Source of the DNA: an uncultured Methanosarcinaceae archaeon
GTDB taxonomy: Archaea; Halobacteriota; Methanosarcinia; Methanosarcinales; Methanosarcinaceae
Reading direction: 5' to 3'
Assembly: GCA_963733675.1 (NCBI GenBank)
Contig: CAVTET010000007.1
Location: 49,487-113,486, forward strand
Length of the DNA stretch: 64,000 bases
Shown piece after piece: positions 4,987-55,107 of the stretch. The notes under the pieces were generated by a model. It saw only the letters and a list, made by a program, of their open reading frames with translations. It was not told the DNA's origin and ran no database searches. The stretch's first letter is position 1, and the number at the start of each line of letters is the position of its first letter. Both the position numbers and the translations under genes were made by a program.

Positions 4987-5017
4987 ATACATAGGTTTTG
5001 TATCAAAATCTCTTTAT
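4987..5017. repeat. 31-bp quasi-palindromic core site (left of ori-cdc6 module)
   Basis: ATACATAGGTTTT-GTATC-AAAATCTCTTTAT. Confidence 0.6.
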
Positions 5018-5369
5018 TTCCTAAATTTCACAAGAAATAAAAAATATTGATTTAATTCTCATGGAACCCTTGGGACTCATAGAGCATAAACATATGAAGC
5101 GTTTTGTAGCTTACATCATAACTCAGACTAGCAAACATAAAAGCAAATTGAACTGAAAAAAACAGGATTATGAAACAACTTAGCGGATTGTTACAGATCC
5201 TAAATTTAAATTAAATACTAATAATTTGACGTTAAAATACTTATCTGTATATATTATAAAATTTAACCGTTACTTTTTTTAAGTAGAAATAGTTTGAAAA
5301 ATCAAATCCAAAATTAAATGTCAAAAAACAAATTTTCGATATTAATAGATCCACTATAGACTGAAGTGG

Positions 5370-5553
5370 CACCCCCTCTATTGACATTTAAACATATAAT
5401 TTTGTGCTGAAAAAAATCCAAATGGAAAGTTTTGATTTATAAAAAGTAAGAAGTCTCGTGTCATGTTTATGATTTACATATATAAATAATTTATTATTTT
5501 ATCTAACATAATTGATTTTTTACCTTCAATATTTTAATGTCAATTGGGGGGTG
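5370..5553. promoter_or_regulatory. Putative replication origin 1: inverted G-string boxes flanking an AT-rich spacer
   Basis: CACCCCCTCTATTGACATTTAAA (5370-5392) and TTTTAATGTCAATTGGGGGGTG (5532-5553), directly upstream of cdc6. Partial TTAAATGTCAA copies near 5315 and 5588, and an inverted one near 5698. Confidence 0.7.
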
Positions 5554-5707
5554 TATGCCAGCATTTCACTACTTAGCCGATATGGAATTAAATGTCAATC
5601 TGGCAAAAAATAGCTTTAATTTCTTAACATTTGGATTAAACGTCATAAATGTCTATAGTTGTCTCACAAAAATAGACATAATCTTACATACCTCAAATGA
5701 CATTTAA

Positions 5708-6967
5708 TTGATCATGCAATCTGAAGACATAGTGACAGATCTTGATGATTTCTTTGGAGAAAACAATAATACAATAGTAAAAGATGCTCAAGCATTATCT
5801 TTAGATTACGTTCCTGAACAAATAGTTGGGCGGAGAGCCGAGATAACAGAACTTGTAAAAATCTTTAAACCAATAGAGTTTAAAGGATATCCTTCTAATG
5901 CGACAATATTTGGTAATTCTGGATATGGAAAGACTGTAGTTGCCAAGTTTGTTCTCCAAAAGCTTATGGAGCGTGTAGAGAAGAAAAAATTATTGAATCA
6001 CACACTAAAATGGGTCTATATTCAGTGCAAAAAACATAAAACGGAGATAAAAGTCCTGTTTGAAACAATAACTCAATTAGATTCTAAAACAAAAGTGCCT
6101 AAAACTGGCTTGTCTCCAGGTGAATATTACGATGCTTTATGGGATCTAATCAAAGAGCAGAATATCTCTCTTATTGTAGTTCTCGATGAAATTGATAAAT
6201 TGAAAAGTGGTGATCTTTTATATAATTTAAGTCGTGCTGGTGAATCTCATCAACTTCCAGAACGTCATTTTCTAACTACGATAGGCATTTCAAACGATTT
6301 TGAATTTGGTAAGTATCTTGACACTAGAACAAAATCATCAATGAATTTCAAAGATGTGGTTTTCTCGGCATATAATGCAGAACAGATAAAAATGATTCTT
6401 TTTGACCGTGTTAAAATTGCATTTAATCCGGGGGCAGTCTCCAACGAGACAATTGAGTTATGTGCTGCAATTTCAGCTAAGGCTCACGGAGATGCTCGCA
6501 AAGCTATCGATCTTTTAAGGGCAGCTGCTATCTATGCTGAAGAGAATGGATATGAGCAGGTACTTCCAGAACATATTGACAAGGCTTTTGAAGAACTGGA
6601 TGGAGATAGAATGATAAAATTTATTCCAAAACTTGCTTTGCATGATAAACTTGTCCTATTATCAATTGTGAAAACAACTAACTATAATAAACAAATTACA
6701 AATGTTAGACAAGTTACTGCAATGTATAATAAACTTTGTGATGAGATTCAAGAAAAAAGGAAAGGGAGAACAACTGTTTCAACTAAGATAGGAGAATTAC
6801 TCACGATGAGCTATATTAAAGTTCTTTCTGTTAGAAAGGGACGTGGAGAAGGAGGACGAGAGGTAGAATTAAATGTTTCTTCGCGACGTGTTTTAGAAGA
6901 TGTGTTGTATGAGGATTATAACCTGGGAGACTTAAGAGATTTTAATCCAACGATGTTTTCCAATTAA
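5708..6967 (+). CDS. cdc6: Orc1/Cdc6-family replication initiator (copy 1)
   Basis: LDYVP..GR..EI, Walker A GNSGYGKT, Walker B LDEIDKL, GDARKAIDLLR, C-terminal winged helix with GRG wing. Probable start ATG 5714. Confidence 0.95.
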   Translation: MIMQSEDIVTDLDDFFGENNNTIVKDAQALSLDYVPEQIVGRRAEITELVKIFKPIEFKGYPSNATIFGNSGYGKTVVAKFVLQKLMERVEKKKLLNHTLKWVYIQCKKHKTEIKVLFETITQLDSKTKVPKTGLSPGEYYDALWDLIKEQNISLIVVLDEIDKLKSGDLLYNLSRAGESHQLPERHFLTTIGISNDFEFGKYLDTRTKSSMNFKDVVFSAYNAEQIKMILFDRVKIAFNPGAVSNETIELCAAISAKAHGDARKAIDLLRAAAIYAEENGYEQVLPEHIDKAFEELDGDRMIKFIPKLALHDKLVLLSIVKTTNYNKQITNVRQVTAMYNKLCDEIQEKRKGRTTVSTKIGELLTMSYIKVLSVRKGRGEGGREVELNVSSRRVLEDVLYEDYNLGDLRDFNPTMFSN

Positions 6968-6986
6968 TTCTTTTTGTAATCCATAA

Positions 6987-7017
6987 ACGCACATGTTTTA
7001 AAGTGAAACATCTATAT
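6987..7017. repeat. Degenerate core site (right of cdc6)
   Basis: ACGCACATGTTTT-AAAGT-GAAACATCTATAT; left arm nearly identical to the 8454 site. Confidence 0.45.
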
Positions 7018-7215
7018 TTTTTAATCTAGTGATAGCCTGCATACGATTCATTACTTAGTTCTAATGTCTTATGTTGATTAAGGATCCAGAAGTCCAACAT
7101 TTTTTTAGAATGTATATCTTAGACTATTTAGTTAGTATAATAAATACATATAAAAAATACTAAAAATATATATTCTTTGGTGTTCATTTAATATCTTAGG
7201 ACCCATAAATGCACT

Positions 7216-7507: not shown

Positions 7508-7778
7508 ATAGGGCAATATCGATTAGTACAAAGAATATCGTTATTGCCCTGGAGATTCGGCGCCCAATTACTTAAAATTATCCATGGAGTTAACATGTAT
7601 CAACATGAAATTAACAACAATAAATTATTGTTTGTGCAGTTGGTGGGATGATCGATCCGATACTTTTAAGCTCATTTTCCCTAACAGTTTAACTTGTTCT
7701 GTTAATAGACTGAGTACTGCTCAATGGTATTGTGTTACATTGATCAAAAGCACATGTTTTACATTAAAACCTATGCAT
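7508..7778. repeat. ~270-bp non-coding repeat, copy 1, ending in core site 7748-7778
   Basis: Aligns with 14167-14439 and, inverted, with 29823-30022. Starts with a GGGCAATA...TATTGCCC hairpin and ends AAGCACATGTTTT-ACATT-AAAACCTATGCAT. Confidence 0.8.
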
Positions 7779-7788: not shown

Positions 7789-8231
7789 TCACCCATAAAT
7801 GTTAGTTTTTATTTGAAGATCTCTGTTGTTATTTATATTGTATATGTTTTTGATATTCTGTTCTACAACATTACGGCATGGTGAACAACATGGGCATTCA
7901 CAGCAAGACTTGGAGGGCGTTATTGTTGCACTAGTATTGGGTGAAAATACTGGTTTGTAATTGTATGAACCTGTTGCATTCGCTAAATTGGTCACTGAAC
8001 CATTATTAAAATCCGACTGTTTTATTGTGTAGGTAGCTGTTCCTGTAACACTGCTACCAGGTACAAGATCAGCGCTGGTTATATTGAATGTTCCAGTTAT
8101 GTTGTCTGCAACAGTAATAGGTGCGGTGATATTCACATTTCCTGTGTTTGTTACATTATAAGTGTATTCGATAACCTGCCAGACAGCATTATAAGTTGAT
8201 GGATATGCTGATTTTACTATTGTCAGAGCTG
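7789..8231 (-). pseudogene. DUF11/DUF7507-type Ig-like surface-protein fragment
   Basis: ALTIVKSA, YTYNVTNTGNV, L.PG.SVTGTATYTIKQSD..GSVTNLA; frameshift near 8180; no signal peptide. Confidence 0.7.
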
Positions 8232-8453: not shown

Positions 8454-8484
8454 ACGCACAGGTTTTGATACAAAAACTGTGCAT
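8454..8484. repeat. Core site (left of fluoride module)
   Basis: ACGCACAGGTTTT-GATAC-AAAAACTGTGCAT; a half site AAAATCTATGCAT lies at 8387-8399. Confidence 0.75.
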
Positions 8485-9133: not shown

Positions 9134-9333
9134 CAATAATAAATATTAATCATCTATCAATTAGCTCGTTTTTATTAGTAAATCCATATTTCCATAAAGC
9201 ATCAATGAAATGCGGAACAAAAAAACCGAAAAATGACTATACTTTTATTTTTGAAACAAAACCAACTAAATAATAGAGGACTATCCATGCTTGCATAAAT
9301 TATTTATTTAATATTGGTAAACTTCTCCCTGAA

Positions 9334-9391
9334 AGATGATGAAGTCCACCTAGATCTTTAAATCTAAACCGCTTATGCTAATGACTTCTAC
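9334..9391 (+). ncRNA. Fluoride riboswitch (crcB motif)
   Basis: AGATGATGAAGTCCACCT...AAACCGC-TTAT-GCTAATGACTTCTAC with a GAAGTC/GACTTC pseudoknot pair, immediately 5' of crcB. One mismatch in P1. Confidence 0.85.
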
Positions 9392-9412
9392 ACAATCATC
9401 GAGGCTTTTGAC

Positions 9413-9811
9413 TTGTACATACTTCTATTAGTAGGCATAGGCGGTTTCATAGGCTCTATCTTGAGATATACTTTAAGTGGATGGGTACAGAGTAATCTTG
9501 TTAATTTCCCGGTTGGTACTTTGGCTGTAAATGTTAGTGGCAGCTTCCTTTTGGGGTTAATAATGTACCTTTCTGAGTATCAAGAACTCTTTGGCGAAGA
9601 AACCAGGATATTTCTGACAATTGGATTAATCGGTGGCTATACAACATTATCAACATTTAGTTATGAGTCATTCAGATTATTAGACGATTCAAAACTAACA
9701 CTAATGGCAATAAATTTGATGGCCACAGTATTATTTTCCATGTTTGCAGTGTATTTAGGGAAAATTGTGGCTTTGAACTTTTACACGTATCTGCTAAGGG
9801 GAATTAGATGA
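9413..9811 (+). CDS. crcB: Fluoride channel Fluc/CrcB
   Basis: GGFIGSILRY, FPVGTLAVNVSGSFLLG, GLIGGYTTLSTFSYE; TTG start. Confidence 0.95.
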   Translation: MYILLLVGIGGFIGSILRYTLSGWVQSNLVNFPVGTLAVNVSGSFLLGLIMYLSEYQELFGEETRIFLTIGLIGGYTTLSTFSYESFRLLDDSKLTLMAINLMATVLFSMFAVYLGKIVALNFYTYLLRGIR

Positions 9812-10194
9812 AAAAAGAATCTCAGGCTATATTATTGAGAATATTCATTGGAGAGTCTGATAGGTATAACGGCAAATCGATGTATATACATATACTTGAG
9901 ATGCTCAAAAATGAAGGAATCGCAGGGGCAACTGTCTTTAGAGGCATTGCTGGTTTTGGAAAACACAGCCGTTTTCATACAACATTTATATTGCAGTTAT
10001 CCACTGACCTGCCAATACTTATCGAAATAGCTGATCTCGAAGAAAAAATTGATAAGATCAAACCAAAATTGGACGAAATAATTACCCAAGGGTTGATCAC
10101 AGAAAAAAAATTAAAATTGTATTTTATGACTACAACAAAGAGAAATGAAATCTTCGTTACAATATCCTTACGCAGTGAACTGGGAAATCAATAA
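9808..10194 (+). CDS. DUF190 (PII-like) protein; C-terminus frameshifted in an A-run near 10103-10110
   Basis: LLRIFIGESD, GIAGATVFRGIAGFG, LSTDLP. The native-looking end IKIVFYDYNKEK* (TGA 10146-10148) is in a shifted frame. Confidence 0.85.
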   Translation: MKKESQAILLRIFIGESDRYNGKSMYIHILEMLKNEGIAGATVFRGIAGFGKHSRFHTTFILQLSTDLPILIEIADLEEKIDKIKPKLDEIITQGLITEKKLKLYFMTTTKRNEIFVTISLRSELGNQ

Positions 10195-10419
10195 CATCAA
10201 ACCTTCAATTGTCTAAGAAATGATTTTAACCACACTATCTAAAGTACTTGATTTTATACTTCACGTGCTTAAATTATAATGAAATTGGCGATTAGACCCG
10301 AAGGAACCTTTGCTGATGTCAGTGTATTAAAATGTATACAGTATATCTAAAGTTCTGTAAATTCCGATAGATATTATCCCCTTTCTTTACAACAAAAAGA
10401 AGATTTATCGTTTTTATTG

Positions 10420-10450
10420 ATGTGGAAGTTTTCATACAAAACCTATCATC
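10420..10450. repeat. Core site (right of fluoride module) with conserved arm 10335-10419
   Basis: ATGTGGAAGTTTT-CATAC-AAAACCTATCATC; arm shared with the 17075, 40006 and 52420 sites. Confidence 0.7.
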
Positions 10451-14166: not shown

Positions 14167-14439
14167 TAGGGCAATATCGATTACCTTAAGAAATGTTATT
14201 ATTGCCCTGGAAATTAGGTGACCAACCATTTTAAATTATACATGGAGACTACATTTATCAACATGAAATAAACAACAATAAAAGATTGCTTGTGCAGTTA
14301 GTGAGATGATTAATCCGATATTTTAAAGCTGATTTTTCCCTAACTGTTTAACTCGTTCTGTTAATAGACGGAATACTGCTTAATGGTATTGTGTTACATT
14401 GATCAAAAGCATAGGTTTTAATGTAACAAAACTGTGCAT
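14167..14439. repeat. ~270-bp repeat, copy 2, ending in core site 14407-14439
   Basis: Homology to 7508-7778 stops at the core AAGCATAGGTTTT-AATGTAA-CAAAACTGTGCAT. Confidence 0.8.
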
Positions 14440-43419: not shown

Positions 43420-43531
43420 CTTATGTCACCTCAGAGTGTTTTATATAAAATTAGGTAATTTATATTTAAATATTTTTCGAAACAATAATTCTTTGTTGCC
43501 TAAGTTATCTCATAATGATCCCTACGTATTT

Positions 43532-44451: not shown

Positions 44452-44675
44452 CAAATGAAGTTAATTCCCACGGAAAAAAGGTTCGAAGCTACCCCAGAGA
44501 AATGTAGTAGTTTTCTAAAAGTACTTTATTTTGCCTGTAATCGTCTAAAGTATACCGTTAACCGTAACGTTTAATTTGCTTGATTCTGAACCTCAAGTGC
44601 ATAGATCCTAAGTTTGGATAGCTTAAAGTATCAAGTTATTGTCTTCTACTTCAACAGAATAAATCTTATGAAGAG

Positions 44676-45935
44676 ATGAAAGATTTAATGAAGACCACAC
44701 AGATTGATTATGCCCGTGATGGGATACTTACTCATGAAATGAAACAAATCATGGAAACCGAAAATATTGATGAAAATATACTGCTTTCGAGAGTAGCTGA
44801 AGGAAGCCTAGTTATAATGACAAGGAAAAGTTACTCTCCCATAGCTATAGGTAAAAGCAGCAGCACTAAGGTAAATGTTAACCTTGGTACATCTGCTGCA
44901 AAAATTGACCCTGATGCTGAGATAGAAAAGGTAAAGGTTGCAGAGAAGTATGGAGCAGATACAATCACTGATCTTTCCATGGGTGGAGAGATTAAGTCAA
45001 TCCGTGCAAGTATATTAAAAAATTGTAGTCTACCTATTACCACGGTGCCAATTTATCAGGCCATTGTGGAGTGTGGTATGAAAGATATTACTGAAGATGA
45101 TCTTTTATCGTATCTAAGGGCTCATGTAGATGCAGGTATGAGTTCTGTGGTGCTGCATTGTGTGGATAAGACGACCCTAGAAAAACTGAAGGGGGGGGGT
45201 AGGATAATGGGTATGGTTTCGAAGGGTGGTTCTCTTACAAGTGTTTATATGCTTACAAATGGTTGTGAAAATCCATTCATAAAGAACTTTGAAGAGATTA
45301 TCGAGATACTTAGAAAAAAGGATGTTGTTCTTTCCCTAGGAAATACTATGCGAAGTGGATGCGTTCATGATTTTAGGGACAGTGCCCAGATGATGGAAAT
45401 TGAGACAAATGTCAGGCTTGCAAATCGAGCTAACGAAGAAGGTGTTCAGGTCATAATAGAAGGCATGGGTGGGCATATACAGGCAGCGGATATTCCTACT
45501 CAAGTTGAGCTGTATAAATCAAGATCAAGTTCCCCTCTCTTCGTTGCAGGTCCCCTACCCACAGACATCGCCCTTGGATATGATCATATCGCAGGAGCAA
45601 TAGGGGCTAGTATTGCAAGCGGTGCAGGAGCAGATTATTTGTGTTATATTACACCTGCAGAGCACCTTTCTCTGCCGAGTTCTCAGCAAGTAAGAGAAGG
45701 TTTAATTGCTTTTAAGATAGCTGCCCATATAGGTGATTCTGTGAAGTATGGAGTTAATTGCAGGGATCTGCTGCTTGCAAAGAAACGTGCACAAATTGAC
45801 TGGAAAGGTCAAATAGATCTTGCACTTGACCCTGACAAACCTAAGGAGATGTGTCCCACAATTGGTCCATGTTCGATGTGTGGTGAATATTGTGCCATAA
45901 AAATTATGGGAGATTATAGTCAACGTACTGGATAA
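44676..45935 (+). CDS. thiC: ThiC-family radical SAM protein (short archaeal type)
   Basis: TKVNVNLGTS, GADTITDLSMGG, TVPIYQ, YDHIAGAIG, LCYITPAEHL, CSMCGEYC. Divergent paralog, function not assured. Confidence 0.85.
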   Translation: MKDLMKTTQIDYARDGILTHEMKQIMETENIDENILLSRVAEGSLVIMTRKSYSPIAIGKSSSTKVNVNLGTSAAKIDPDAEIEKVKVAEKYGADTITDLSMGGEIKSIRASILKNCSLPITTVPIYQAIVECGMKDITEDDLLSYLRAHVDAGMSSVVLHCVDKTTLEKLKGGGRIMGMVSKGGSLTSVYMLTNGCENPFIKNFEEIIEILRKKDVVLSLGNTMRSGCVHDFRDSAQMMEIETNVRLANRANEEGVQVIIEGMGGHIQAADIPTQVELYKSRSSSPLFVAGPLPTDIALGYDHIAGAIGASIASGAGADYLCYITPAEHLSLPSSQQVREGLIAFKIAAHIGDSVKYGVNCRDLLLAKKRAQIDWKGQIDLALDPDKPKEMCPTIGPCSMCGEYCAIKIMGDYSQRTG

Positions 45936-46286
45936 GAGCCTATTCAAAACTAGAAAAATGAATTAACTAATCAAATATGAATTGCATGCTCAGTAAATAC
46001 TAAAAAATAATTATATGATATATAAATATATTTGGCATGTATTAATACTGGTTAAATATAGAATTGATTAATTAGTTTATGAAGTCTGGTTAATTTGTCA
46101 GAAATTGGATAATGTGTCTGAAATGATAGAAATATAAAAGCCAACGCCAGGACTTATATTATCACCTGTCACAACGTCGTTACTTGCGCTACTTTTACCA
46201 TTGTTGTGGATTGCACTAACCTTTGTTGCTACCAACGAAGCTGCAATGACAGCCACTGACAAAAGATCTGTTTTAGAGTTTTATTT

Positions 46287-46317
46287 ATACATAGTTTTTG
46301 TAGCAAAATCTATGCAT
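46287..46317. repeat. Core site (second degenerate copy at about 46371)
   Basis: ATACATAGTTTTT-GTAGC-AAAATCTATGCAT. Confidence 0.75.
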
Positions 46318-46658
46318 TTTCTTATTTTTAAGCCAAAATTATAGGACATTTTTACCTGATTGTGCAGAAAAAGCATAGTTTTTATTAAAATACATGTTCG
46401 TTTAGAAAATAAAAAATGCTTTTTTCGCTTTTCGCCGAGTCAATAAATCCATACAAAGTGAGTTCGAAGTCTAGAAAAGAGTACAGTTTTCATCTAAAGA
46501 GCAGCGCTATCGTTTCGTGCAGCCCTATATAGACCTAGACTATACAATAGACACAATTTTAAAAACGAAAATCCTACAGAGCAGAAAATATCTTCCTAAC
46601 AGAGTAATGTTTATTTGAATTCAAAGCCTGTCAAATATATATGAATAATCATTAAAGG

Positions 46659-46775
46659 AATGATTTTCGGAGAACTAACTTTACAAAAGCTGACATTCAA
46701 GGAGCTGATTTTCGTGAAGCAGATCTTATAAAAGTTAAATTTGAAGGAGTTAACCTTCAGCGAACGTATATTAAC
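46659..46775 (+). pseudogene. Pentapeptide-repeat fragment
   Basis: NDFRRTNFTKADIQGADFREADLIKVKFEGVNLQ. Confidence 0.6.
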
Positions 46776-46866
46776 CCTGCAGTTCCCCTAGGACCATATC
46801 CTACAGGCACAGTGGCTACAACCCGGTTATTAAACTCACCACTATAAGCGTAAATTAAAGAGACAT

Positions 46867-47024
46867 GGTTATGGTGCAAAAAATCTGGCTTTGTTGCAAA
46901 ATCAATGAAAAACTTCGCAATTAGGAAATTTAATCAATTTAATCAATATTACTAATGGAAAAATGATATACAAAGGTAAGATTTTTAGTATCAAACTGCG
47001 GAAATATTATTTTTGCGCTAGACC
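46867..47024. mobile_element. MITE family B
   Basis: GGTTATGGTGCAAAAAATCTGGC...ATTATTTTTGCGCTAGACC. Confidence 0.7.
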
Positions 47025-47351
47025 CGACGATTTTATTCTACCGCATGTTTATGAGCCCTGTATACTTTTCCTCCCACCTTTCCAGCCCGAAAATATGCTT
47101 GACCCGAAAACCCCTAAGACTTTCGAAGACTTTGCAACGACTAATACTTACGAAGAATTCAGATACTTGCAAAACAGGAAATGTGAAAAGCACTTCTTTG
47201 AAGCCGTTTGAAAACTAATCAGTTAAATGCCATCGAGAGCTTAAACGAGTTCTGATAAACCTTCAGCACATGCAGAAAGCATGGAACTTTCATTTTTTTT
47301 GTTGATCGGTTACGAATAGTATATAAATAACTAGATAAAATCACAAATTTA

Positions 47352-47714
47352 TCAAAGTCTACCTGAATCAGCAGGACAATTTCTGAATTGTGCAAATTCT
47401 GAATCCTGATAAATTACTTTTTCCCAATCTTCAATGGTATAAGATCCTAAATTCAACTTTGTAATTTTGATTGCATTTTTTAATTCTATAAACCCCGCTA
47501 AATCAATCAACTTAAGAGCCTCAAGTATTCTCCCTCTATATACTTGCTCGATGCCACATTCTTCGCACAACTTTAGGTAATTATCATATACATCAGTTAT
47601 ATAAATTATTTTTTTCTTTTTCTGATATTTTGCAATTTTCAGAACAGATAAAAGTACTACTCGTTGATGAAATGGTAAATATGAGTTTACTGCTTCATAT
47701 GGATTAAATGGCAC
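47352..47714 (-). CDS. Stand-alone Cdc6 C-terminal winged-helix protein
   Basis: LPFHQRVVLLSV...DVYDNYLKLCE...LDLAGFI-like segment mirrors LPLHHKIVLLSV...YETLC...LDMQGYI of the upstream Cdc6; start overlaps the cdc6 stop. Confidence 0.8.
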   Translation of the reverse strand: MPFNPYEAVNSYLPFHQRVVLLSVLKIAKYQKKKKIIYITDVYDNYLKLCEECGIEQVYRGRILEALKLIDLAGFIELKNAIKITKLNLGSYTIEDWEKVIYQDSEFAQFRNCPADSGRL

Positions 47715-48951
47715 TTATTTCCCCCACTAGTGGAAAATATTCTTTTAATCCTTCTAATTGGTAATCACTATATAACGCTTTTTTTGTTGGCTGAATGCAT
47801 TCATGAGGAATAGAAATTATTCGAGTTTTTCCGCAATTATTTACTGCCACAGATTGAATATATCCCTGCATATCTAATGAACTGATCCACCCTGAAACTG
47901 TTGGTCTTGAAGATGGTTTCTCTGCAATTATCTTACATAATGTTTCATACATACTCGTTACATCTCCCGTATTCAATGGTTTTTTATTATTCATAAGTTT
48001 AATAACACTTAATAACACTATTTTGTGATGCAAGGGCAATGTAACAACCGAACTAATAATATCATCATTCTGTACTTTCTCATCAGCTTTCTTAATATGC
48101 AAAACAGTTATCTTCTCCGATACTTCTCCTTCCGCCATTTTTGCTGCTGTATGCAGTACATTAAGAGCTTTTCGAATATCTCCTCCAGTCTTTGCAGAAT
48201 TTTTGGCACATTCGATGATCGTTTCTTCATCTATTGAACTTGGAGTGAAAGCAAGATCAATTCTATCATTCAAAATATGATAAATATCATTAGTATTGTA
48301 TGATGGGAACCTGAACTTTTCAAATCCAACAGACGAAAGAACACGGGGATCCAATTTTTCCTCAAATTTGAGACTATTTGAGAGGCCTATGATCCTTATG
48401 AATTGCCTTCCAGTAAATTTACCATTTGAAATAGCTCTACTAAATGAATAGAGTATATCATCAGATTTCAGAAAATCTATTTCATCAAGAATAACAATTA
48501 AAGCTGTATTTTTCTCATTTATTAAAAAATATAATATCTCATAATAATAATCCATTGAATATCCAGATCTTTTAACTTTAGTTTTGGGATCAAGATATTC
48601 AATAAGCTTGAATAAAACTGCATTTGTGGTATATACTTCTTTACAAGAGATGCAGATCCAATCTACATTTAGATCTATTGGATCATGTTCTAACTTATCC
48701 ATTAGTGCCCTTAAAACATATTTAGAAGTTGCCGTCTTTCCACACCCAGGAGAACCAAAAATAAGAGCATTATTAGGTGCACCACGAAGGAATAAAGGTT
48801 TCATTAGATATGCTAATTCCTGAATCTGAATATCCCTTCCTATTAATACTGAAGGCAAATAATCATCGGGAGACAATACATCTGCTCTTATGATAATTCC
48901 TTTCTTTCCTACATAATCAAAAATATTTGTGTTACTAATATTATATACCAC
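47704..48951 (-). CDS. cdc6: Orc1/Cdc6-family initiator (copy 2)
   Basis: YLP..LIGRD, GSPGCGKT, LDEIDFL, RVLSS, GDIRKAL, winged helix. Confidence 0.95.
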   Translation of the reverse strand: MVYNISNTNIFDYVGKKGIIIRADVLSPDDYLPSVLIGRDIQIQELAYLMKPLFLRGAPNNALIFGSPGCGKTATSKYVLRALMDKLEHDPIDLNVDWICISCKEVYTTNAVLFKLIEYLDPKTKVKRSGYSMDYYYEILYFLINEKNTALIVILDEIDFLKSDDILYSFSRAISNGKFTGRQFIRIIGLSNSLKFEEKLDPRVLSSVGFEKFRFPSYNTNDIYHILNDRIDLAFTPSSIDEETIIECAKNSAKTGGDIRKALNVLHTAAKMAEGEVSEKITVLHIKKADEKVQNDDIISSVVTLPLHHKIVLLSVIKLMNNKKPLNTGDVTSMYETLCKIIAEKPSSRPTVSGWISSLDMQGYIQSVAVNNCGKTRIISIPHECIQPTKKALYSDYQLEGLKEYFPLVGEISAI

Positions 48952-49163
48952 CTTTTACATGATTGACCTCACTAAACATGACACACTGTACTAGACATGA
49001 CGTATTTATACTTTAGGATTTACATAGTTGAACCGAAAAAAACAAAAACATTAAACCTTCAACAGTCTAAAATATGACTTAAACAATAGTATTATTTTTG
49101 TACTTGATTTATTATCCCAAGCTCATGAGTCCTATATCTTATTAATCCAAAAACTTTAGTAGT

Positions 49164-49436
49164 CCCCCCCCTCTTCCGACATGACTGACATGAATATATG
49201 AATCCTAAAAACAGTGGTAGTTCTCTATTAATTTGTTGATCTTATTTTCAAAATGTATTTTTGCACCTGTAGTATAGAACAATAATAGCGCTGGAAACCT
49301 AATTAGCAAAATAAAAATAGTTAACTATATAAGATATTAATAATAGACTTATAACATGGCTTTTTTTTAATTACAAGACATCGACTTGATTTTTAGGGTA
49401 AGGATTTCATGTCAGTCATGTCGGAAGAGGAGGGGG
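49164..49436. promoter_or_regulatory. Putative replication origin 2: ~31-bp inverted repeats with G-strings
   Basis: CCCCCCCCTCTTCCGACATGACTGACATGAA and TTCATGTCAGTCATGTCGGAAGAGGAGGGGG around an AT-rich spacer; three ACATGA half-sites at 48957-49000. Confidence 0.75.
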
Positions 49437-49452
49437 TGAGTATATTAATTTT

Positions 49453-49564
49453 GGTTCTGTTGCAAAAAATCAGGATATTTATATGCCATAAATAGGTCAA
49501 TAATGATACAAAAAGCAATAATTATAGCCTAAAAAGGCAGTAAAATTATTTTTGCAACAGAACC
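49453..49564. mobile_element. MITE family A, internally deleted (112 bp)
   Basis: Same TIRs and partial body. Confidence 0.85.
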
Positions 49565-49585
49565 TGCTATATTATTTCACATCCG

Positions 49586-50665
49586 TTATTTCTCTGGAAT
49601 GGATTCATACAGTTTTCTTCTTTCCAGAGGCATGGATTTGAGATACTCTTTTGCTTCTTCCGGAGATACAACTTTACGGGTTCCATCAGCTTCCTGTATG
49701 ACCACACCGCTTTCTATGAGCATCTTGTATCTTGCTTTTCGAACTTCTTTGTCAGGATGACAGACGAAATGGCAGTTGGAACAGGTGTATTCCATCCGGG
49801 ATCCTGGAATCAAACATATATAAAATCCACCTTTGAACTTCGGTCTGCCGAGATACGCTTGTGTAGCAGCGGGTATTGCAGCGATGAAATCTTCATCTTT
49901 TCTGGGGATTTTAAAGCGCGCTGGAGACCATGTAGACCATTTTCCGGTGGCATTCAAACCTGTAAGACCGCCGCAGACAAGGAAACAGCGGCTATTACTT
50001 CTTCGCTTTCCGTAACTAAACTCCTTTCCACCAAGGGTTACAGTAACTTTCTCAATTGGATCCACATAACCAGATGAACATACTGAAAGGCAGAGCCTGC
50101 ATTCGTCACAATAGTTCTCTTCTTCTGGCAAGGGGTCTGTTGGGATAAGTTCTGCGTCTGTAACGACTGAGGCCAGAACAATAGCGGATCCATATTCCTT
50201 TGTAATAATGTTCCCTGAATATCCAAAATGCCCGATCCCGGAGCGTACCGCCAGATACCTATGAGAAATGGGGGGGTGCATATCTAGAAGCCAATTTTCT
50301 GTATCCCTTCGGTAAACGAAATTTGCAGACTGTGGGACAGCTTTGTATCCAGATTGTTTCAAGAAATCTGCCATCTCAAGTGCTATTCCATTTGCAAGGG
50401 TAGTAGTTCGTACCTTATTAGTTTCAAGGGATTCATGATCCATTTTTCTGAAATAAGGTTCGATAAGGTCCTGATTAAAAGCCAGGGCAAAACAGACAGC
50501 AGATTTTGCTTCTGGAAGTACATAGGTCAGGTCGGCAGAAGGAGGACCGCCTAAAAGGGTTTCGGTCGTTGCAATGCCTACTTTGAAGGCTCCAAGGGTC
50601 AGAGCCATCTCTTTTAAAGTTTCAGTCAATTCTATTATTTTAGATTTATCTGTTAACTCTTCCAC
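49586..50665 (-). CDS. Epoxyqueuosine-reductase/reductive-dehalogenase-like Fe-S protein
   Basis: ISHRYLAVRSGIGHFGYSG, LASVVTDAEL, CDECRLCLSVC, CGG...CSNCHFVC. Confidence 0.85.
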   Translation of the reverse strand: MEELTDKSKIIELTETLKEMALTLGAFKVGIATTETLLGGPPSADLTYVLPEAKSAVCFALAFNQDLIEPYFRKMDHESLETNKVRTTTLANGIALEMADFLKQSGYKAVPQSANFVYRRDTENWLLDMHPPISHRYLAVRSGIGHFGYSGNIITKEYGSAIVLASVVTDAELIPTDPLPEEENYCDECRLCLSVCSSGYVDPIEKVTVTLGGKEFSYGKRRSNSRCFLVCGGLTGLNATGKWSTWSPARFKIPRKDEDFIAAIPAATQAYLGRPKFKGGFYICLIPGSRMEYTCSNCHFVCHPDKEVRKARYKMLIESGVVIQEADGTRKVVSPEEAKEYLKSMPLERRKLYESIPEK

Positions 50666-51005
50666 TTTTGATTCCCCAGTTAAATTATAAGAGCATATTA
50701 GATTTAGAATAATTTATAGGCTATAATTGAGATATCTTTAATTTATATTGAAATATACTCTTTTTCTAGAGTTATATTTCAATAACTTTATAGACCGTTT
50801 TGTGCATGATTATTCCTAATCTAAAACTAAGAAAGTGAATTATTCCACTAATCTACAAACTTAATTTCGCGGATAAATATTCTATATTCATTTTAGTGTA
50901 ATTTTAATACTATTGGTTAGAATGCTTAGAAAAAACATGAGACTAATAAGTAAGAAAAAGTCTCAAAAATCGTATATAAAGCCAAATATGGAGGATTTCC
51001 TATAT

Positions 51006-51131
51006 TTATTTATCTTGCATTTTCTTTTCATCTGCAAGAGTAACTTTTTTCCCACAAATGTCACATTTCCCTTCTTCAGTGATACAAGGCTGTTTTGGAG
51101 CTTCTCCACCACAAATTCCACACTTTACCAT
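51006..51131 (-). CDS. Small zinc-finger protein, 41 aa
   Basis: MVKCGICGGEAPKQPCITEEGKCDICGKKVTLADEKKMQDK; GGAGGTGA RBS. Confidence 0.8.
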   Translation of the reverse strand: MVKCGICGGEAPKQPCITEEGKCDICGKKVTLADEKKMQDK

Positions 51132-51331
51132 ATCATTTCACCTCCTTTTTTGATTTCTGTATTTCTAACCCATTAAATTATTGAGGGTAAATTATATATA
51201 GTTATCTGTAATTATAATATACTATGTATATTTCTGCACCTTTAAGAAATATATGTCTGAAAAATTAGGAAGTTATGGTAGAAATTTTAAAAATTAAGCA
51301 AATGGATCTAAGAGAATGAGAGAAGTTATCA

Positions 51332-52168
51332 ATGATACTGGACACTAATTCTAAGAGCACTAAAAAATCTGATGATTTAGAAATTACTGAAATAAAGAGT
51401 ATAAAAGGAAAACTTTTTGAAATCCATAATGATATCATAAAATTGATGGAATCTTCCAATAGACTTCGTTCTGAAGCTGTTCTAGAAAATTGTAGGCAGG
51501 AATATTTACATTCTTTTCTTAATTATCTGTTTGACGATATCGAGACTGGACTTAACAGAAACATGGTAAAAAAATGTCCTGAAAAGGAAACTTGCACTTC
51601 TGCTTTTACAGCTTTCCTACAGAATAATGCAAGACTTATAAAAACTAACAAAATTGATGAAGCACTTATATTGGACAACAGCAAAAAGCTAAATGAATTG
51701 AAATGCGGAGCTCCTTATAATATATGCGAGCAGTGCTTTTCTGAAGTTTCGAGCTTATTTATAAAGCAAATCAACTTTATGCGTTCTATGAAAATTTATG
51801 AAAATAACACGGAACAGAAGCCAGATATTTCAGCTCTCGAAACAGGTGCGGTTTTGAGTGAAATTCTAGTACCTATCTCAAATAAACAGCGGCTAGATAT
51901 TTTAAAGGCAGTTGCTTTCGAACCAAGAAGTTTCTCTGCTCTGTCCAAACTTACGACTCTTATAGCAGGACACTTACACTTTCATCTCCAGAAACTCTTA
52001 GACTGCAACCTGATCCTGCAGCAACATGAAAGAGGTGATTATATGATTACTGAAAAAGGGTTCAAAATCCTGAAAAGTCTGAATGAAATGTATTCTTCAC
52101 TCCAATACGTCCCACCACAGGGCTCCACAGAAAACACTCTCCAGAGGTCAGAAGAACACCAGATTTGA
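51332..52168 (+). CDS. ArsR-type winged-helix regulator with Cys-rich N-domain (Methanosarcina Msr-like)
   Basis: PISNKQRLDIL, SFSALSKLT, GHLHFHLQKL, RGDYMITEKG. Confidence 0.85.
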   Translation: MILDTNSKSTKKSDDLEITEIKSIKGKLFEIHNDIIKLMESSNRLRSEAVLENCRQEYLHSFLNYLFDDIETGLNRNMVKKCPEKETCTSAFTAFLQNNARLIKTNKIDEALILDNSKKLNELKCGAPYNICEQCFSEVSSLFIKQINFMRSMKIYENNTEQKPDISALETGAVLSEILVPISNKQRLDILKAVAFEPRSFSALSKLTTLIAGHLHFHLQKLLDCNLILQQHERGDYMITEKGFKILKSLNEMYSSLQYVPPQGSTENTLQRSEEHQI

Positions 52169-52419
52169 CTTTATGAATATTATTGACTTTATGAATATTA
52201 ACTACATTTGACCCTAGCAAACTCTTACTCTCTTGATTGTTGAGGTCCTAAAAATTATAGAACTTAAAGGCTAGACAAAATTGCGCATAACCATTAACTC
52301 TTCATCCACTGTATTTTATAGAACTGATAGTGCACTACAGTATCATAAAGTTCTGCAAAATCTGATTAACTCTGTGTTCTTTTTCTGTCACTACAAAATA
52401 TGAATTTATCGTTTTGCTT

Positions 52420-52450
52420 ATGCGGAAGTTTTCATACAAAAACCACGTAT
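52420..52450. repeat. Core site; conserved arm 52335-52419 on the left only
   Basis: ATGCGGAAGTTTT-CATAC-AAAAACCACGTAT; homology to 10335-10483 ends at the core. Confidence 0.7.
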
Positions 52451-52709
52451 GAATCCTGATCAAAATTTAGTAAAACAATAACTGTACATTATTAAATAAA
52501 ACAGAGAAACAAAACGTCTATAAGTATCGTGAATTTTCTGTAAATATAATATAATTTAACACTTATTTAGATTTAATACGTATTTTAAATTTTTTTGGTC
52601 CATTAAAAAACTTTTTTAATAGGTTCTTAACAAAACACATAAAGTTACTTTAAACATTAATTTTTCGACTTCTAAGATAAGATAACAATAGTAAAAAAGG
52701 AGTAGTTAG

Positions 52710-53634
52710 ATGAAAGATAACCAAGTTAGCTTTACTGCACTGTCGGTAGCCTACATGCGTGCCTATCATACCATGCACGATACTCAAAAAATCTCTGATG
52801 ACTTTTTGGCTTATGATTTAATACCCAAGGAAAAAAGAGAACTAATTGAACAACATTTAATTGAAGATTATTTGAATTTGGATACAGAATTAAATGGTTC
52901 TAAGCATACTACATCTCTTTTTAGACAATATTGCGACGTCGACGCGCTTTCTGCAAGCAATTAATAGTGTTACAAGCCGTGCAAGATATACGGAAGATAC
53001 CCTTGAGAAAATTGTCAGGCAGGGAGTAAAACAGTATGTGATCCTTGGAGCAGGGATTGATACATTTACATATCGGCGACCAGATTTGATGAAATATTTG
53101 GATGTATTTGAAATTGATCACCCAGCCACACGAGAATTTAAGCTTAATAGACTTACCGAGTTGGGCTGGGAGCATCCTACAAAATTACACTTTATTCCAG
53201 TAGATTTCACGAAGGAAACCATTGTGGCAGCACTAACTCTATCATCGTCTTATGACCCAAATGTTAAAAGCTTCTTTAGCTGGTTCGGTGTCACCCAGTA
53301 CTTGACCCAAAAAGAAGTGTTTGCAACACTACGTTCTATCAGGGAAATTGCTGCTGCAGGCAGTATTATCAGCTTTGATTATATCGACGCCGATAAATTT
53401 ATCCTTGAGAAATCTTCTCCACAAATGCAAAAAACATTAGAGTTTTTGCAAAATATAGATGAACAATTCAGAATGGAAGGTTTTTATTCGTTAAAATTGG
53501 CTGAAAATATCAACACTTTAGGACCCCGTCTCCATGAAAATTTGAATCCACAAGACATCAAAAAATGTTACTTGCAAGGACGCTCAGATGGATGTTTTGA
53601 ATATGTTTGCTTTGCCTGTGCAGTTGTCGAATAA
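52710..53634 (+). pseudogene. Frameshifted paralog of the 33844 methyltransferase
   Basis: Two overlapping ORFs match the N- and C-parts of 33844-34767; shift near the T-run at about 52920. Confidence 0.85.
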
Positions 53635-53769
53635 TTAGGCACATAATATGGTTCTATGCTTCCTTGGTCAATATTTTTAATAAAACATTTAAAAGGCGTA
53701 TGATTCTTATATTTGTACTGTTATCACATCTTAAGCTTATATTGCCAAATTAGTAGGTTCTATGTCAAC

Positions 53770-55023
53770 ATGAGCTATGCTACTTTTTCTCATATTTTAC
53801 ATGATCCTTCAATACTCACTCTTTTGGGAGTTTTTGCACTTACTGCTTTCAGACAAGTTGGCTCCTTGAGATTACAAATTTGGCAGATCATGACCATGGG
53901 CGCCGTTTTGGCATTATTGGTAGGACAGATTTCGCCTGAGTTAGCTTTAAGAGCAATTAATATCGATATAATTAGCTTTCTTTTCGGGGCTTTTTGTATA
54001 GGAGAAGCGCTAAATATGAGTGGGTATCTTGCTAGGATCGGTAGCAAGATAGGATCCAGGGTAAAGAATACGGATCAACTCGTCTTACTTGTTCTTTTTT
54101 CGACAGGAACTCTTTCTACAATTTTTATGAATTATACTCTGGCTGTTATTTGCACTCCACTCGTTCTGCAGTTTTCTCGGAAATATGGTATCTCGCCTAA
54201 GCTCATGCTATTTGCCCTAGCTTTTTGAATAACTACTGGAAGTGTTATAAGTCCCATTGGAAACCCACAAAATCTTCTTATTGCAATTGATGGAAATCTT
54301 AATACTCCTTTTGTAACTTTTTTACGCTGGCTTGCTCTTCCAACTCTTATTTGTTTTATCATTGCTTATGCCGTACTTAAACTTTTTTTCAAAGAGGAAT
54401 TTGGAAAATCGATCAAAATTTATTTTGAAGAGTTTATTATAGATCATGAGCTTGCTAAGGTTTCAAAAATAGCTATTCTACTTATGCTAACTCTTCTAGC
54501 CTGTAAAATTTTTCTAATGGAGTTTTTGACTACTTGGAGTTTTAATCTGAGCTGGATTGCTCTTATCTCAGCATCTCCCTTGCTGTTTAGTAGAAAACGC
54601 ATTGAGATCTTAAGGAATATTGATTGGACTACTCTGATCTTCTTCGTTTCAATGTTCGTTCTGATGAAAAGCGTATGGATTTCTGGAACATTTCAAGGTT
54701 TACTTGACAAACTATCTTATAATTTAGGTTCGATGCCAGTAATTCTTGCAGTCAGTATTGGATTCAGCCAATTTATTTCTAATGTTCCTTTTGTTGCGCT
54801 TTACTTACCTGCAATGGGTAATGCTGTTTCTCAAGAACAACTGATGGCACTTGCAGCAGGAAGTACGATAGCGGGTAATTTATTAATCTTTGGAGCTGCA
54901 AGTAATGTTATAATTATCCAGAATGCAGAAAAAGAAGGCTAAACCCTTTCATTTATCGAATTCTTAAAAGTTGGATTTTTAATAACATTTTTGGATGCAA
55001 TTATCTATTATATTTTCCTTTAA
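53770..55023 (+). pseudogene. ArsB/NhaD/SLC13-type anion permease with two in-frame stops
   Basis: SPIGNPQN, IDWTTLIFF, ISNVP, STIAGNL..GAASNVII in one frame; TGA 54226 and TAA 54940. Confidence 0.88.
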
Positions 55024-55076
55024 CTCTTAAGAGCTGCACTCAAATTTATTTTAGATATTGTCTAAAAATAGAGAAA

Positions 55077-55107
55077 ATACATATGTTTTGATACAAAAAC
55101 TGTGCGT
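55077..55107. repeat. Core site
   Basis: ATACATATGTTTT-GATAC-AAAAACTGTGCGT. Confidence 0.75.

Follow-up and report, generated by a model that had tools for sequence, protein, structure and literature searches.

Palindromic units dispersed in Methanosarcina genomes coincide with breaks in homology

The window analyzed here is a stretch of 64,000 nucleotides from an uncultured Methanosarcinaceae archaeon. A first-pass annotation had described about 15 quasi-palindromic intergenic sites that divide it into gene units; a re-check of open reading frames (ORFs) and Pfam domains supported this division and found the genes between the sites as described. These units comprise Cdc6 (5708-6967); a pyrophosphatase with a fluoride riboswitch (9326-9397), CrcB and DUF190; a PIN protein with VapB; an MBL hydrolase; two His-rich ORFs; and, at 52420-55077, an LCM methyltransferase with a CitMHS permease that is split into two ORFs. 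Counted by hand, 12 of the 17 window sites are located 11-400 bp downstream of an ORF. The common element is a 31-base palindromic unit with a ATRCAYAGNTTTT arm, an N5 centre and a AAAANCTRTGYAT arm. The sites are listed below; arm complementarity was scored out of 13 in the 5-nt register for the 16 sites listed previously.

4987-5017, no strand: palindromic unit; PWM 31.4; arms 10/13; doubles as the opening 31 nt of a truncated 'B' module, 4988-5087 (nhmmer match, module positions 2-105)
6987-7017, no strand: palindromic unit 20 bp past the Cdc6 (5708-6967) stop (ORF and Pfam); PWM 20.1; arms 8/13; weak RNA hairpin, -3.7 kcal/mol
7748-7778, no strand: palindromic unit; 1 mismatch to pattern; PWM 29.8; arms 10/13; 11 bp beyond the 3' end of a minus-strand DUF7507 ORF (7789-8136)
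8454-8484, no strand: palindromic unit; pattern match; PWM 37.7; arms 11/13; 107 bp upstream of the pyrophosphatase start, among the few sites at a 5' end; RNA hairpin -11.9 / -14.2 kcal/mol on its two strands
10420-10450, no strand: degenerate unit, divergent subfamily; arms 6/13; below PWM and arm-scan thresholds; 226 bp past the DUF190 stop; loop and one arm similar to flank cluster 2 by eye; folding no better than shuffles
14407-14439, no strand: palindromic unit, 7-nt loop; arm-sum score 24.2; arms 5/13 in 5-nt register
17075-17105, no strand: degenerate unit; PWM 13.4; arms 8/13; missed by arm scan; 61 bp past the stop of a TPR protein (16469-17014); folding no better than shuffles
21033-21064, no strand: palindromic unit, 6-nt loop; score 25.8; arms 6/13 in 5-nt register; located where the 3' ends of ORF 20703-21005 and the PIN gene (21136-21537; Pfam) converge
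22042-22072, no strand: perfect palindromic unit; 0 mismatches; arms 13/13; flank cluster 5; RNA hairpin -19.4 kcal/mol, z -6.3; A-type module to its left (about 21932-22041)
28017-28047, no strand: palindromic unit; MBL hydrolase starts 146 bp downstream (pattern, PWM, Pfam); arms 11/13
29498-29528, no strand: palindromic unit; PWM 25.4; arm-scan score 26.0
29652-29727, plus strand: 3' fragment of a 'B' module without palindrome (nhmmer match, module positions 90-165)
30313-30343, no strand: palindromic unit; PWM 28.2; arms 9/13; Pfam; an IS6/IS240-family insertion sequence (30500-31364; limits from repeat end-points) ends ~160 bp away
40006-40036, no strand: palindromic unit, divergent subfamily; PWM 20.9; arms 9/13; flank cluster 2; A-type module to its right (about 40037-40170)
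41747-41930, plus strand: palindromic unit (41747-41777; arms 10/13; no hairpin folding), then a full 'B' module with 9-nt periodic repeats (nhmmer 41747-41845 and 41839-41930; sequence)
46287-46317, no strand: palindromic unit 352 bp past the ThiC stop; 0 mismatches; arms 11/13; bridged by independent-run contigs covering 43616-46901
52420-52450, no strand: palindromic unit, divergent subfamily; PWM 23.2; arms 8/13; flank cluster 2; A-type module to its left (about 52310-52419); 252 bp past an HTH protein stop; bridged by contigs 51145-54642 and 50528-54801
55077-55107, no strand: palindromic unit; 1 mismatch; PWM 33.6; arms 8/13; Pfam; located where the 3' ends of the CitMHS fragment (stop 54942) and minus-strand feoB (55654-57633) converge

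An IUPAC pattern of ATRCAYAGNTTTT-N5-AAAANCTRTGYAT with at most 3 mismatches detected seven window sites (14 strand matches), at 4987, 7748, 8454, 22042, 28017, 46287 and 55077. Matches to composition-matched sequence were far fewer, with a mean of 0.01 sites and a maximum of 1 in 100 dinucleotide shuffles of the window, confirming the dispersed sites as real. Scanning for arms, with loops of 3-8 nt allowed and a threshold on the arm-sum score, recovered 14 of the 16 previously listed sites; 10420 and 17075 fell under the threshold and by eye are degenerate members of a divergent subfamily (flank cluster 2). Note that the low scores of 14407 and 21033 in the 5-nt register result from loops of 7 and 6 nt, respectively. 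One additional site, 29498, was found by both PWM and arm scan. The arms of 22042 are perfect as claimed (13/13 complementary, no mismatch), and the centres named in the annotation (GATAC, CATAC, CATAT, GCTAT, GCTAC) apply to 12 of the 16 sites.

The palindromic family is not peculiar to the window. About 200-270 copies are present in the genome (203 at a PWM score of at least 15, for which a third-order Markov control gave ~2; 272 when loops of 3-8 nt were allowed), and site density in the window is ~3-5 times that of large contigs. None of the 203 sites fell inside a gene of a crude gene set covering 50% of the genome. Sites are clustered in repeat-rich DNA, 97 of 191 neighbour distances being 5 kb or less, compared to 49 ± 5 expected from random placement in non-genic DNA. 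Where a predicted gene was within 150 bp (46 cases), it turned its 3' end toward the site in 34 and its 5' end in 12 (p=0.0016). Adjacent sites were oriented directly in 61 cases and inverted in 36. The units occur singly, doubled or with modules attached. A 168-nt 'B' module has 98 nhmmer matches in the genome, 67 of them starting at a palindrome, and flank clustering revealed several further families adjoining the sites.

Beyond this genome, the family is confined to Methanosarcina, at 0-90 copies per species. We found 1-90 copies in 33 of 41 Methanosarcina genomes, with a large expansion in one clade of the genus, whereas a reversed-pattern control gave none in all 41. Other genera of the order, represented by 12 genomes, gave no copy in the motif search. 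An exact-match search of 185,579 species genomes returned 96 stretches; among the 80 matches listed, all but 3 were titled Methanosarcina, Methanosarcinaceae, Methanosarcinales or Methanobacteriota. Judged by eye from the listed copies, the unit of low-copy species is a nearly perfect duplex palindrome. One low-copy species carries arrays in the order toxin-antitoxin (TA) pair, site, SIR2, site, MNT-HEPN, site.

In each unit a loop of 3-8 nt, most commonly 5, separates two arms of 13 nt (ATRCAYAGNTTTT and its complement). In the genome-wide arm scan only 165 of 272 sites had a 5-nt loop, a point against the proposed recombinase-driven shuffling. Loop sequence also varies strongly across the genome, the commonest among 203 sites being GCTAT/ATAGC (29), GTGAT/ATCAC (18) and GTATG/CATAC (14). 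The sites are nevertheless directional, as had been suggested: positions 9/23 are non-complementary in 167 of 203, with 36 Watson-Crick pairs compared to 61.8 expected (p=5e-5). At variable arm positions, Watson-Crick counts equalled the expectation under independence, giving no sign of arm covariation. Positions 3 and 6 of the arm are close to 50/50 purine or pyrimidine, and the others are >85% conserved. AT-rich stems have T and A tracts adjoining the loop and T4-T5 on both strands; the T5-versus-T4 asymmetry did not agree with gene direction (18 vs 16). Predicted RNA hairpins in the window ranged from -19.4 kcal/mol to no better than shuffles. Only some units fold, which means that a hairpin function is not maintained in each individual copy.

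Arms tend to move together with the DNA that adjoins them. Within flank families, identity of the adjacent arm was 0.80 and 0.78 (baselines 0.71 and 0.72) and that of the far arm 0.76 and 0.69 (baselines 0.72 and 0.71), a descriptive comparison of mutually related copies. The loop was linked to the flank on one side only (0.565 vs 0.434; other side, 0.449 vs 0.438), which hints at a defined, polar crossover and fits a dedicated recombinase better than random breakage.

We analyzed the coincidence of sites with homology breakpoints. Comparisons within the genome gave 1659 HSPs beginning at a site, 275 terminating at one and 130 running across one; at sites without a B module, the numbers are 480, 220 and 76. 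The sites of sister genomes, which are fragmented assemblies, were then compared with the present genome. A homology junction occurred at 21 of 36 sites and 45 of 260 control positions (Fisher p=5e-7), in line with the breakpoints anticipated in the first-pass annotation; one of the 21 (L038:1501) adjoins a masked run of N. Spanning matches were found at 3 of 36 sites and 92 of 260 control positions (p=9e-4), a deficit that is partly an intergenic effect because the control positions include coding DNA. In worked cases, the site and one orthologous flank were retained and the opposite flank was replaced, and sister species carry different blocks between or beside two orthologous sites. PAS-kinase paralogues of 79% identity have a common site ~25 nt past the stop, with homology ending at the site edge.

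For 38 of the 94 inter-site intervals another copy with a boundary at a site was detected, and no larger duplications containing these intervals were found. Complete site-to-site units account for only 4 of the 94, all from one family. This is a ParE-type toxin-antitoxin cassette of ~830 bp with two bounding sites, present in 4 contexts in the genome. Homology between its copies stops no more than a few bases from the outer edges of the sites, no target duplication was visible by eye, and the copies in relatives G044 and G047 also end at site edges. Two other species share, at 93.5% identity, an MNT-HEPN cassette that ends in a site and lies in unrelated flanks; in both, a site or degenerate site also lies upstream. 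A search for collinear flanks with and without a solo unit yielded no case, two apparent absences being units with a longer loop.

The absence of a recombinase from the window was confirmed, with no tyrosine recombinase among 41 proteins scanned. The genome contains 14 PF00589 matches, none on contig C7, and 3 of 13 tyrosine recombinase genes are within 2 kb of a site, not above chance (20% of random positions). Likewise, the 70 Y1_Tnp matches in the genome represent IS200/IS605-type Y1 transposase relics, of which 5 of 63 are within 1 kb of a site (8.7% of random positions); none is flanked by units.

Among known systems, the family resembles bacterial REP/BIME (including REPIN/RAYT) in being an imperfect palindrome of ~30 nt with hundreds of extragenic copies, mostly after genes, of lineage-specific sequence, forming mosaics with other repeated motifs and lying at rearrangement join points. 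It differs in being archaeal, with an AT-rich stem and T and A tracts beside the loop. REPs end in a GTAG or CGTC tag (PMC3733652). This tag is absent from the Methanosarcina unit; nor is there a RAYT-like gene flanked by units or a regular alternation of orientation within clusters. Acinetobacter plasmid pdif modules are XerC/XerD sites of 11-6-11 layout flanking resistance and toxin-antitoxin modules. As in pdif, gene modules, toxin-antitoxin pairs among them, lie between short inverted-repeat sites, a given module recurs in varied contexts with sites at its edges, and one arm is better conserved. The Methanosarcina sites, however, have a 13-(3 to 8)-13 layout, are chromosomal, number in the hundreds and do not alternate; the link to a Xer-type recombinase is only putative, and just a single module family is clear-cut. 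Integron attC sites delimit cassette arrays, and archaeal integrons have been reported as well. Shared with attC are a palindromic site on the 3' side of small genes that are often promoter-poor, cassettes including toxin-antitoxin pairs, and a putative boundary inside the site, so that part of the site would stay on each side. In contrast to attC, the 31-nt unit is far shorter, conserves sequence rather than structure (no covariation), has no adjacent integrase and forms many small dispersed clusters instead of one array. Archaeal chromosomes carry dif once, as an 11-6-11 site close to the terminus (PMC2958812). The likeness is an inverted repeat that might bind a tyrosine recombinase dimer; the hundreds of 13-5-13 sites set the family apart. 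Features that define pdif, dif and attC are not shared by the unit, with its loop variable in length and sequence, a non-alternating orientation, no nearby recombinase and no arm covariation.

Distribution, position relative to genes, coincidence with homology breakpoints and the tendency of arms to move with adjoining DNA are direct observations. Our preferred reading, tentative and given slightly less than an even chance, is that of a REP/BIME-like, Methanosarcina-specific dispersed palindromic unit acting as a recombination-prone boundary. The arms would be recognized as DNA by a protein and exchange would take place inside the palindrome; DNA on one side would be exchanged, duplicated or replaced, while the site and the opposite side remain. 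Over time, such exchange may cut repeat-rich accessory DNA into gene-sized blocks. Candidate agents are a dedicated recombinase, an HUH nuclease and host repair of a hairpin or cruciform. Strict REP features are lacking, given the missing GTAG or CGTC tag, the AT-rich stem and Y1 relics no nearer than chance.

The first-pass annotation had proposed cassettes shuffled by a recombinase. This would be a dedicated site-specific exchange, an archaeal and chromosome-borne counterpart of pdif modules or integron cassettes, in which a recombinase encoded elsewhere binds both arms, makes its cut at a constant position next to the loop, and excises gene cassettes that then insert at any resident site. 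Part of the proposal stands: the sites are real, directional, intergenic and at homology breaks; the ParE cassette lies between two complete sites in 4 contexts, with the same edges in G044 and G047; the MNT-HEPN cassette carries its 3' site into unrelated flanks in two species; sister species differ in the block at two orthologous sites; and the position 9/23 asymmetry, the one-sided loop linkage and the site-separated TA, SIR2 and MNT-HEPN arrays of a low-copy species point the same way. However, the 4 complete units among 94 intervals belong to one family, a loop of 3-8 nt is too variable in sequence for spacer-homology-dependent exchange, and 61 direct versus 36 inverted neighbours is neither pdif-like alternation nor a uniform array. 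With tyrosine recombinases near sites at chance frequency (3/13 within 2 kb vs 20%), none in the window, and no circular or empty-site forms observed, we consider this scheme unlikely.

Alternatively, the unit may be a selfish REP/MITE-like element that makes its own copies, perhaps through a single-strand hairpin processed by an HUH/Y1 transposase, with insertions tolerated only downstream of genes. Breakpoints at sites would then arise because each copy, with or without a module, would itself be an insertion. The range of 0-90 copies within one genus with a burst in one clade, the single, doubled and module-bearing units, the tolerance in loop length and the 70 Y1_Tnp matches agree with this, and absent covariation is expected of copies decaying from a palindromic master. 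Yet no collinear pair with and without a solo unit was found, Y1 genes are neither flanked by nor near units, the 50/50 choice at arm positions 3 and 6 resembles a recognition code rather than decay, and sites persist beside genes diverged to 79% identity, making this origin quite improbable. An ordinary cis-regulatory signal inherited with its gene, either a two-way terminator with RNA-stabilizing hairpin or the operator of a dimeric DNA-binding protein, is similarly doubtful. The orientation of gene 3' ends (34 vs 12 within 150 bp) and the 12 of 17 window sites 11-400 bp past stops suit a terminator; archaea use T-stretches to signal termination, and 3' UTRs of M. mazei have a median length of 85 nt (PMC7237163). 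The near-perfect duplex palindrome seen by eye in low-copy species suits a homodimer. A terminator, however, has no need of the conserved ATRCAYAG part, hairpins are not maintained, and T5/T4 asymmetry ignores gene direction (18 vs 16). Promoter distance varies, and most sites lie elsewhere than upstream of a gene. The homology breaks are explained by neither reading, and the huge copy-number difference between species is unlike a conserved regulon. Under the preferred reading of a recombination-prone boundary, a putative two-way T-tract terminator is a possible secondary role of the unit.

A 31-bp palindromic motif had been listed at 16 places in the window by the first-pass annotation. This motif is real: seven places matched at ≤3 mismatches, compared with a mean of 0.01 in shuffled sequence. 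A weight matrix was made from the strong sites and iterated over the whole genome of the uncultured Methanosarcinaceae archaeon (G000), yielding 203 sites at a score of at least 15, as against ~2 in a third-order Markov control. Separate scoring of the two arms, allowing for loops of 3-8 nt, gave 272 non-redundant sites; the loop was 5 nt long in 165 and of another length (3, 4, 6, 7 or 8 nt) in 107. Arm complementarity at the 16 window sites (named by start coordinate) ranged from 13/13 (22042) down to 5-6 of 13. The separate-arm scan recovered 14 of them, with loops of 7 nt at 14407 and 6 nt at 21033, and added a site at 29498, but 10420 and 17075 are degenerate. Gene content between the sites was as originally described. 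Note that the family is genome-wide, and site density in the window is just 3-5 times that of the large contigs.

Each arm follows the consensus A T (G/A) C A (C/T) A G N T T T T; the unit starts with ATRC and finishes with GYAT. The two R/Y positions are ~50/50, and the remaining arm positions are 83-98% conserved. On the left flank there is merely a weak T-rich preference (..ATTG). Watson-Crick pairs at the variable arm pairs occurred as expected from column frequencies (84 observed vs 82.0 expected; 71 vs 74.2), and pairing was avoided at positions 9/23 (36 vs 61.8 expected). Thus, the arms vary independently, the site is asymmetric, in line with the directionality given in the first-pass annotation, and a hairpin is not kept copy by copy. 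Consistent with this, RNA folding energies of the window units varied from -19.4 kcal/mol (22042) to the level of shuffled sequence (41747, 17075, 10420). A selected RNA or single-stranded DNA hairpin was rejected on the basis of the absent arm covariation and the variable folding. In low-copy species, the unit is nearer to a perfect duplex palindrome, as judged by eye from site listings. The T4-T5 tracts on both strands of the unit, together with its position after genes, fit a possible role as an archaeal intrinsic terminator. A known RNA family was also considered and discarded: the fluoride riboswitch was the single Rfam match in the window, which also lacks tRNAs.

None of the 203 sites lies inside a predicted gene, as determined with a home-made, conservative gene caller whose set covers half of the genome. 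The spacers that carry sites are long (median 1.6 kb vs 475 bp over all spacers). Sites are clustered, with 97 of 191 neighbour distances at ≤5 kb compared with 49 ± 5 for random non-genic placement, and form chains of up to 8 within 6-10 kb. Genes ≤150 bp from a site face it with the 3' end in 34 cases and with the 5' end in 12 (p=0.0016). Counting by hand in the window, we found 12 of 17 sites 11-400 bp downstream of an ORF stop, and three (8454, 22042, 28017) 107-234 bp upstream of a start. An operator for a transcription factor would be placed upstream of promoters; sites mostly follow stops and few precede starts, which is not an operator's position.

The motif is confined largely to one genus. 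At ≤2 mismatches it was present in 33 of 41 Methanosarcina genomes and gave zero in 8, with counts per genome of 90 (G000), 86, 48, 39, 28, 15, 12 and 12, and ≤7 in the rest; the pattern read backwards gave 0 in all 41. It was absent from all 12 genomes of other genera in the same order. Scanning one genome for each prokaryote species with exact matching returned 96 stretches. Among the 80 listed, all but 3 were titled Methanosarcina, Methanosarcinaceae, Methanosarcinales or Methanobacteriota. The exceptions (loci L108, L129 and L175) are short contigs in bins labelled Smithella, Patescibacteria and Methanobacterium, and may be mis-binned Methanosarcina DNA. One site was found close to the end of a viral contig on which a terminase and part of a family A polymerase are encoded. 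Methanosarcina species that are in culture and amenable to genetics have a few copies each, making binding, termination and recombination directly testable.

The palindromes are embedded in a repeat mosaic. A further copy elsewhere in G000 exists for 76% of the window, and close relatives match the window just as short pieces spread across many contigs. Among HSPs of at least 60 nt touching the 203 sites, 1659 start there and run one way, 275 end and 130 span the site; leaving out sites of the B module, the numbers are 480, 220 and 76. The B module is the commonest attached module, a 168-nt repeat with ~six 9-nt periodic repeats whose number varies in 9-nt steps. We obtained 98 nhmmer matches to it in G000, of which 67 begin with the palindrome. 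The module was rejected as the promoter of a downstream gene family, since most copies have no ORF of at least 40 aa within 300 nt; it may be an RNA, a peptide-coding sequence or protein-binding DNA. Several further flank families occur besides B, and one palindrome can carry different modules on its two sides, a mosaic picture familiar from bacterial BIMEs.

Several other repeats were noted in the window. The B module at 41747-41930 contains an open, Leu/Glu-rich frame of 32 codons (41825-41923). Two paralogous small ORFs at 40769-41053 and 41284-41505 each combine an N-terminus resembling a signal sequence with a stretch rich in His and Asp, with only a weak YxzE-like match in Pfam; a third such ORF follows a B module on contig C5 near 319600. 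Insertion sequences of the IS6/IS240 family, present in ~60 copies in G000, are located at 17542-18396, 30500-31364 and 34851-35910, and repeat end-points pile up at their ends. A ~106-nt repeat (10167-10272) overlaps the end of the DUF190 gene and has matches of 74-80% identity at numerous places in many genomes across the genus. The unit of fluoride riboswitch, crcB and DUF190 occurs three times in G000 at 87-91% identity, with duplication limits that do not coincide with palindromes:
Window 9194-10271, riboswitch-crcB-DUF190 copy
Contig C12, 272346-273426, riboswitch-crcB-DUF190 copy
Contig C1, 872286-873146, riboswitch-crcB-DUF190 copy

To relate the sites to differences between genomes, we compared 30 site-containing loci from three close relatives with G000, giving 36 usable sites. 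At 21 of these, in assemblies that are fragmented and with one case abutting masked N, a match ended or began ≤15 nt from the site; 3 had a match spanning both flanks and 15 were without any flank match. Among 260 control positions, located within these loci at 300-900 nt from the sites and including coding DNA, 45 had a junction and 92 were spanned (Fisher, p=5e-7 for junctions and p=9e-4 for spans). Thus, homology breaks between sister genomes coincide with the sites, a positive outcome of a check proposed in the first-pass annotation. Contigs from four DNA runs over 38500-56500 included long pieces that bridge 46287 and 52420, and had breaks at 40006 and 41747. These bridging contigs, and the fact that G000 has 15 contigs despite its ~60 IS copies, make it doubtful that the junctions are assembly artefacts. 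The joints of these contigs were not accepted as evidence of recombination, having short sides (23-58 nt) that look like other repeat copies. Insertion polymorphism of a solo unit was not found among the relatives' 36 sites; in two cases where the unit seemed to be missing, it proved to have a longer loop.

Individual loci illustrate the nature of these breaks. In the comparison of G000 with the genome of a relative, G047, a site and ~3.2 kb on its right are orthologous (92-94% identity), and the left side is occupied by a B module in G047 and by a ParE toxin-antitoxin cassette in G000. The right arm of this site is identical in the two genomes, the loop differs by 1 base and the left arm by 3. 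At C3:270344 (contig C3 of G000), orthology covers the site and its left flank, and the right neighbour is a B module in G047 vs the ParE cassette in G000. This cassette (~830 bp; antitoxin and ParE-family toxin) is framed by two complete sites in each of its four locations in G000, where the outer flanks are unrelated, and copies in two relatives, G044 and G047, stop at the same edges. A terminal-inverted-repeat transposon or MITE was rejected, since target duplication was not seen by eye at the edges of three aligned cassette copies. An MNT-HEPN pair shared by two low-copy species (G004 and G005; 93.5% identity over 830 bp) has a site ~50-80 nt after its stop, and homology ceases at the site's outer edge. 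Likewise, two PAS histidine-kinase paralogues (79% identity) both have a site ~25 nt after the stop, where their homology ends. In G005 (locus L057:2400-7100), a small gene pair, a SIR2-like gene and an MNT-HEPN pair follow one another, each with a site after it; this array looks like a defence island with one site between units.

We examined 94 intervals of 0.3-3.5 kb between neighbouring sites. A further copy that extends from one site to the next exists for only 4, all of the ParE family. For 38, a copy has one of its ends at a site. None of the 94 lies inside a larger duplication, and 67 contain internal repeats. The genes enclosed are mixed, including rhodanese, TPR and pentapeptide proteins, kinases, MntP and NifU, besides toxin-antitoxin pairs, IS elements and broken genes. 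Thus, the partition of the DNA into blocks that had been proposed is real, but wholesale shuffling of cassettes stays hypothetical.

Identity between arms was compared within and between flank families as descriptive means over related copies. The arm adjacent to the flank is more similar within a family (0.80 and 0.78) than between families (0.71 and 0.72), and identity of the far arm is not clearly raised (0.76 and 0.69 vs 0.72 and 0.71). The loop is linked to the flank on one side (0.565 vs 0.434) and not on the other (0.449 vs 0.438). This fits a boundary that would lie inside the palindrome, beside the loop, and have a polarity.

Candidate enzymes are not enriched near the sites. G000 has 70 matches to the Y1 transposase of IS200/IS605, most of them broken; 5 of 63 such places are ≤1 kb from a site compared with 8.7% of random positions, and the two best-preserved Y1 genes have no flanking units. 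The ends of IS200/IS605 elements, or a RAYT, were therefore rejected as the source of the repeats. No tyrosine recombinase was found in the window by PF00589 search, in agreement with the original reading, which placed the enzyme elsewhere. G000 has 14 PF00589 matches, and a link was rejected with 3 of 13 lying ≤2 kb from a site vs 20% of random positions. Separately, four nearly identical copies of a 380-aa tyrosine recombinase lie on or close to contig ends, two of them with an adjoining Y1 fragment. This multi-copy element interrupts the assembly and has no link to the palindromes:
Contig C3, 665110-666177, tyrosine recombinase copy
Contig C8, 95-1162, tyrosine recombinase copy
Contig C4, 1540-2034, tyrosine recombinase copy
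Contig C1, 1159892-1160386, tyrosine recombinase copy

REP-type dispersed palindromes are well studied in bacteria, and methanosarcinal genomes are notoriously rearranged and repeat-rich. The palindromic family works like bacterial REP/BIME elements but lies outside their strict definition. As in the REPIN-RAYT system, an imperfect palindrome of 20-40 nt (here 31 nt) is present in >100 extragenic copies (here 203-272) and forms mosaics with other conserved motifs (the B module and further flank families). In contrast, a single-copy Y1 (RAYT) gene flanked by repeats is lacking, as is a GTAG or CGTC end tetranucleotide, and the Methanosarcina stem is AT-rich. According to PMC3733652, GTAG or CGTC is the end tag of bacterial REP elements.

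The pdif/att-like reading of the first-pass annotation can be upheld in its observation and in part of its interpretation, but not in the site features that define pdif modules or integrons. The family shares site-bounded modules with pdif modules and integron cassettes, and the same module is indeed bounded by sites in different contexts (ParE, MNT-HEPN), with 4 of 94 intervals qualifying. Unlike the fixed 11-6-11 core of pdif/Xer sites, the Methanosarcina unit has 13-nt arms and a loop of 3-8 nt. Opposite orientations do not alternate as in pdif modules, neighbouring sites ≤5 kb apart being direct in 61 cases and inverted in 36, although orientation rests on a weak internal asymmetry and this is not a strong test. 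Identity with dif itself was rejected, since archaeal dif is a single 11-6-11 site according to PMC2958812. Integrons carry an integrase beside the array, whereas the window has no PF00589 match, and attC sites keep a folded structure over variable sequence, whereas here the sequence is conserved. It is conceivable, but in our view improbable, that a putative protein recognises the 31-bp polar palindrome and swaps DNA at the arm-loop junction, thereby building up and reshuffling toxin-antitoxin, defence and accessory islands in Methanosarcina chromosomes. If true, such cassette exchange would be an archaeal counterpart of integrons and pdif modules, without attC-type structure or dif-type core.

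No earlier description of a defined palindromic repeat family in Methanosarcina was found in the searched portion of the literature. The family is easily recognised and genus-specific and coincides with differences between sister genomes, thus offering a handle on methanosarcinal remodelling and on the movement of toxin-antitoxin and defence genes. When genomes of this group are assembled from metagenomes, the units account for many contig breaks and many 'junction' artefacts, which bears on annotation.

Two further features of gene content were observed. The window contains two full Cdc6/Orc1 genes (5708-6967 and 47704-48951) and a C-terminal fragment (47352-47714). The first has 67-68% nucleotide identity to close relatives, and may thus not be the origin-linked copy but an accessory one. 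Broken genes include a CitMHS permease in two ORFs (window 53713-54942) and a TPP enzyme in three (C1:1152032-1153475); together with the 70 mostly broken Y1 matches and a low coding fraction, they suggest ongoing gene decay.
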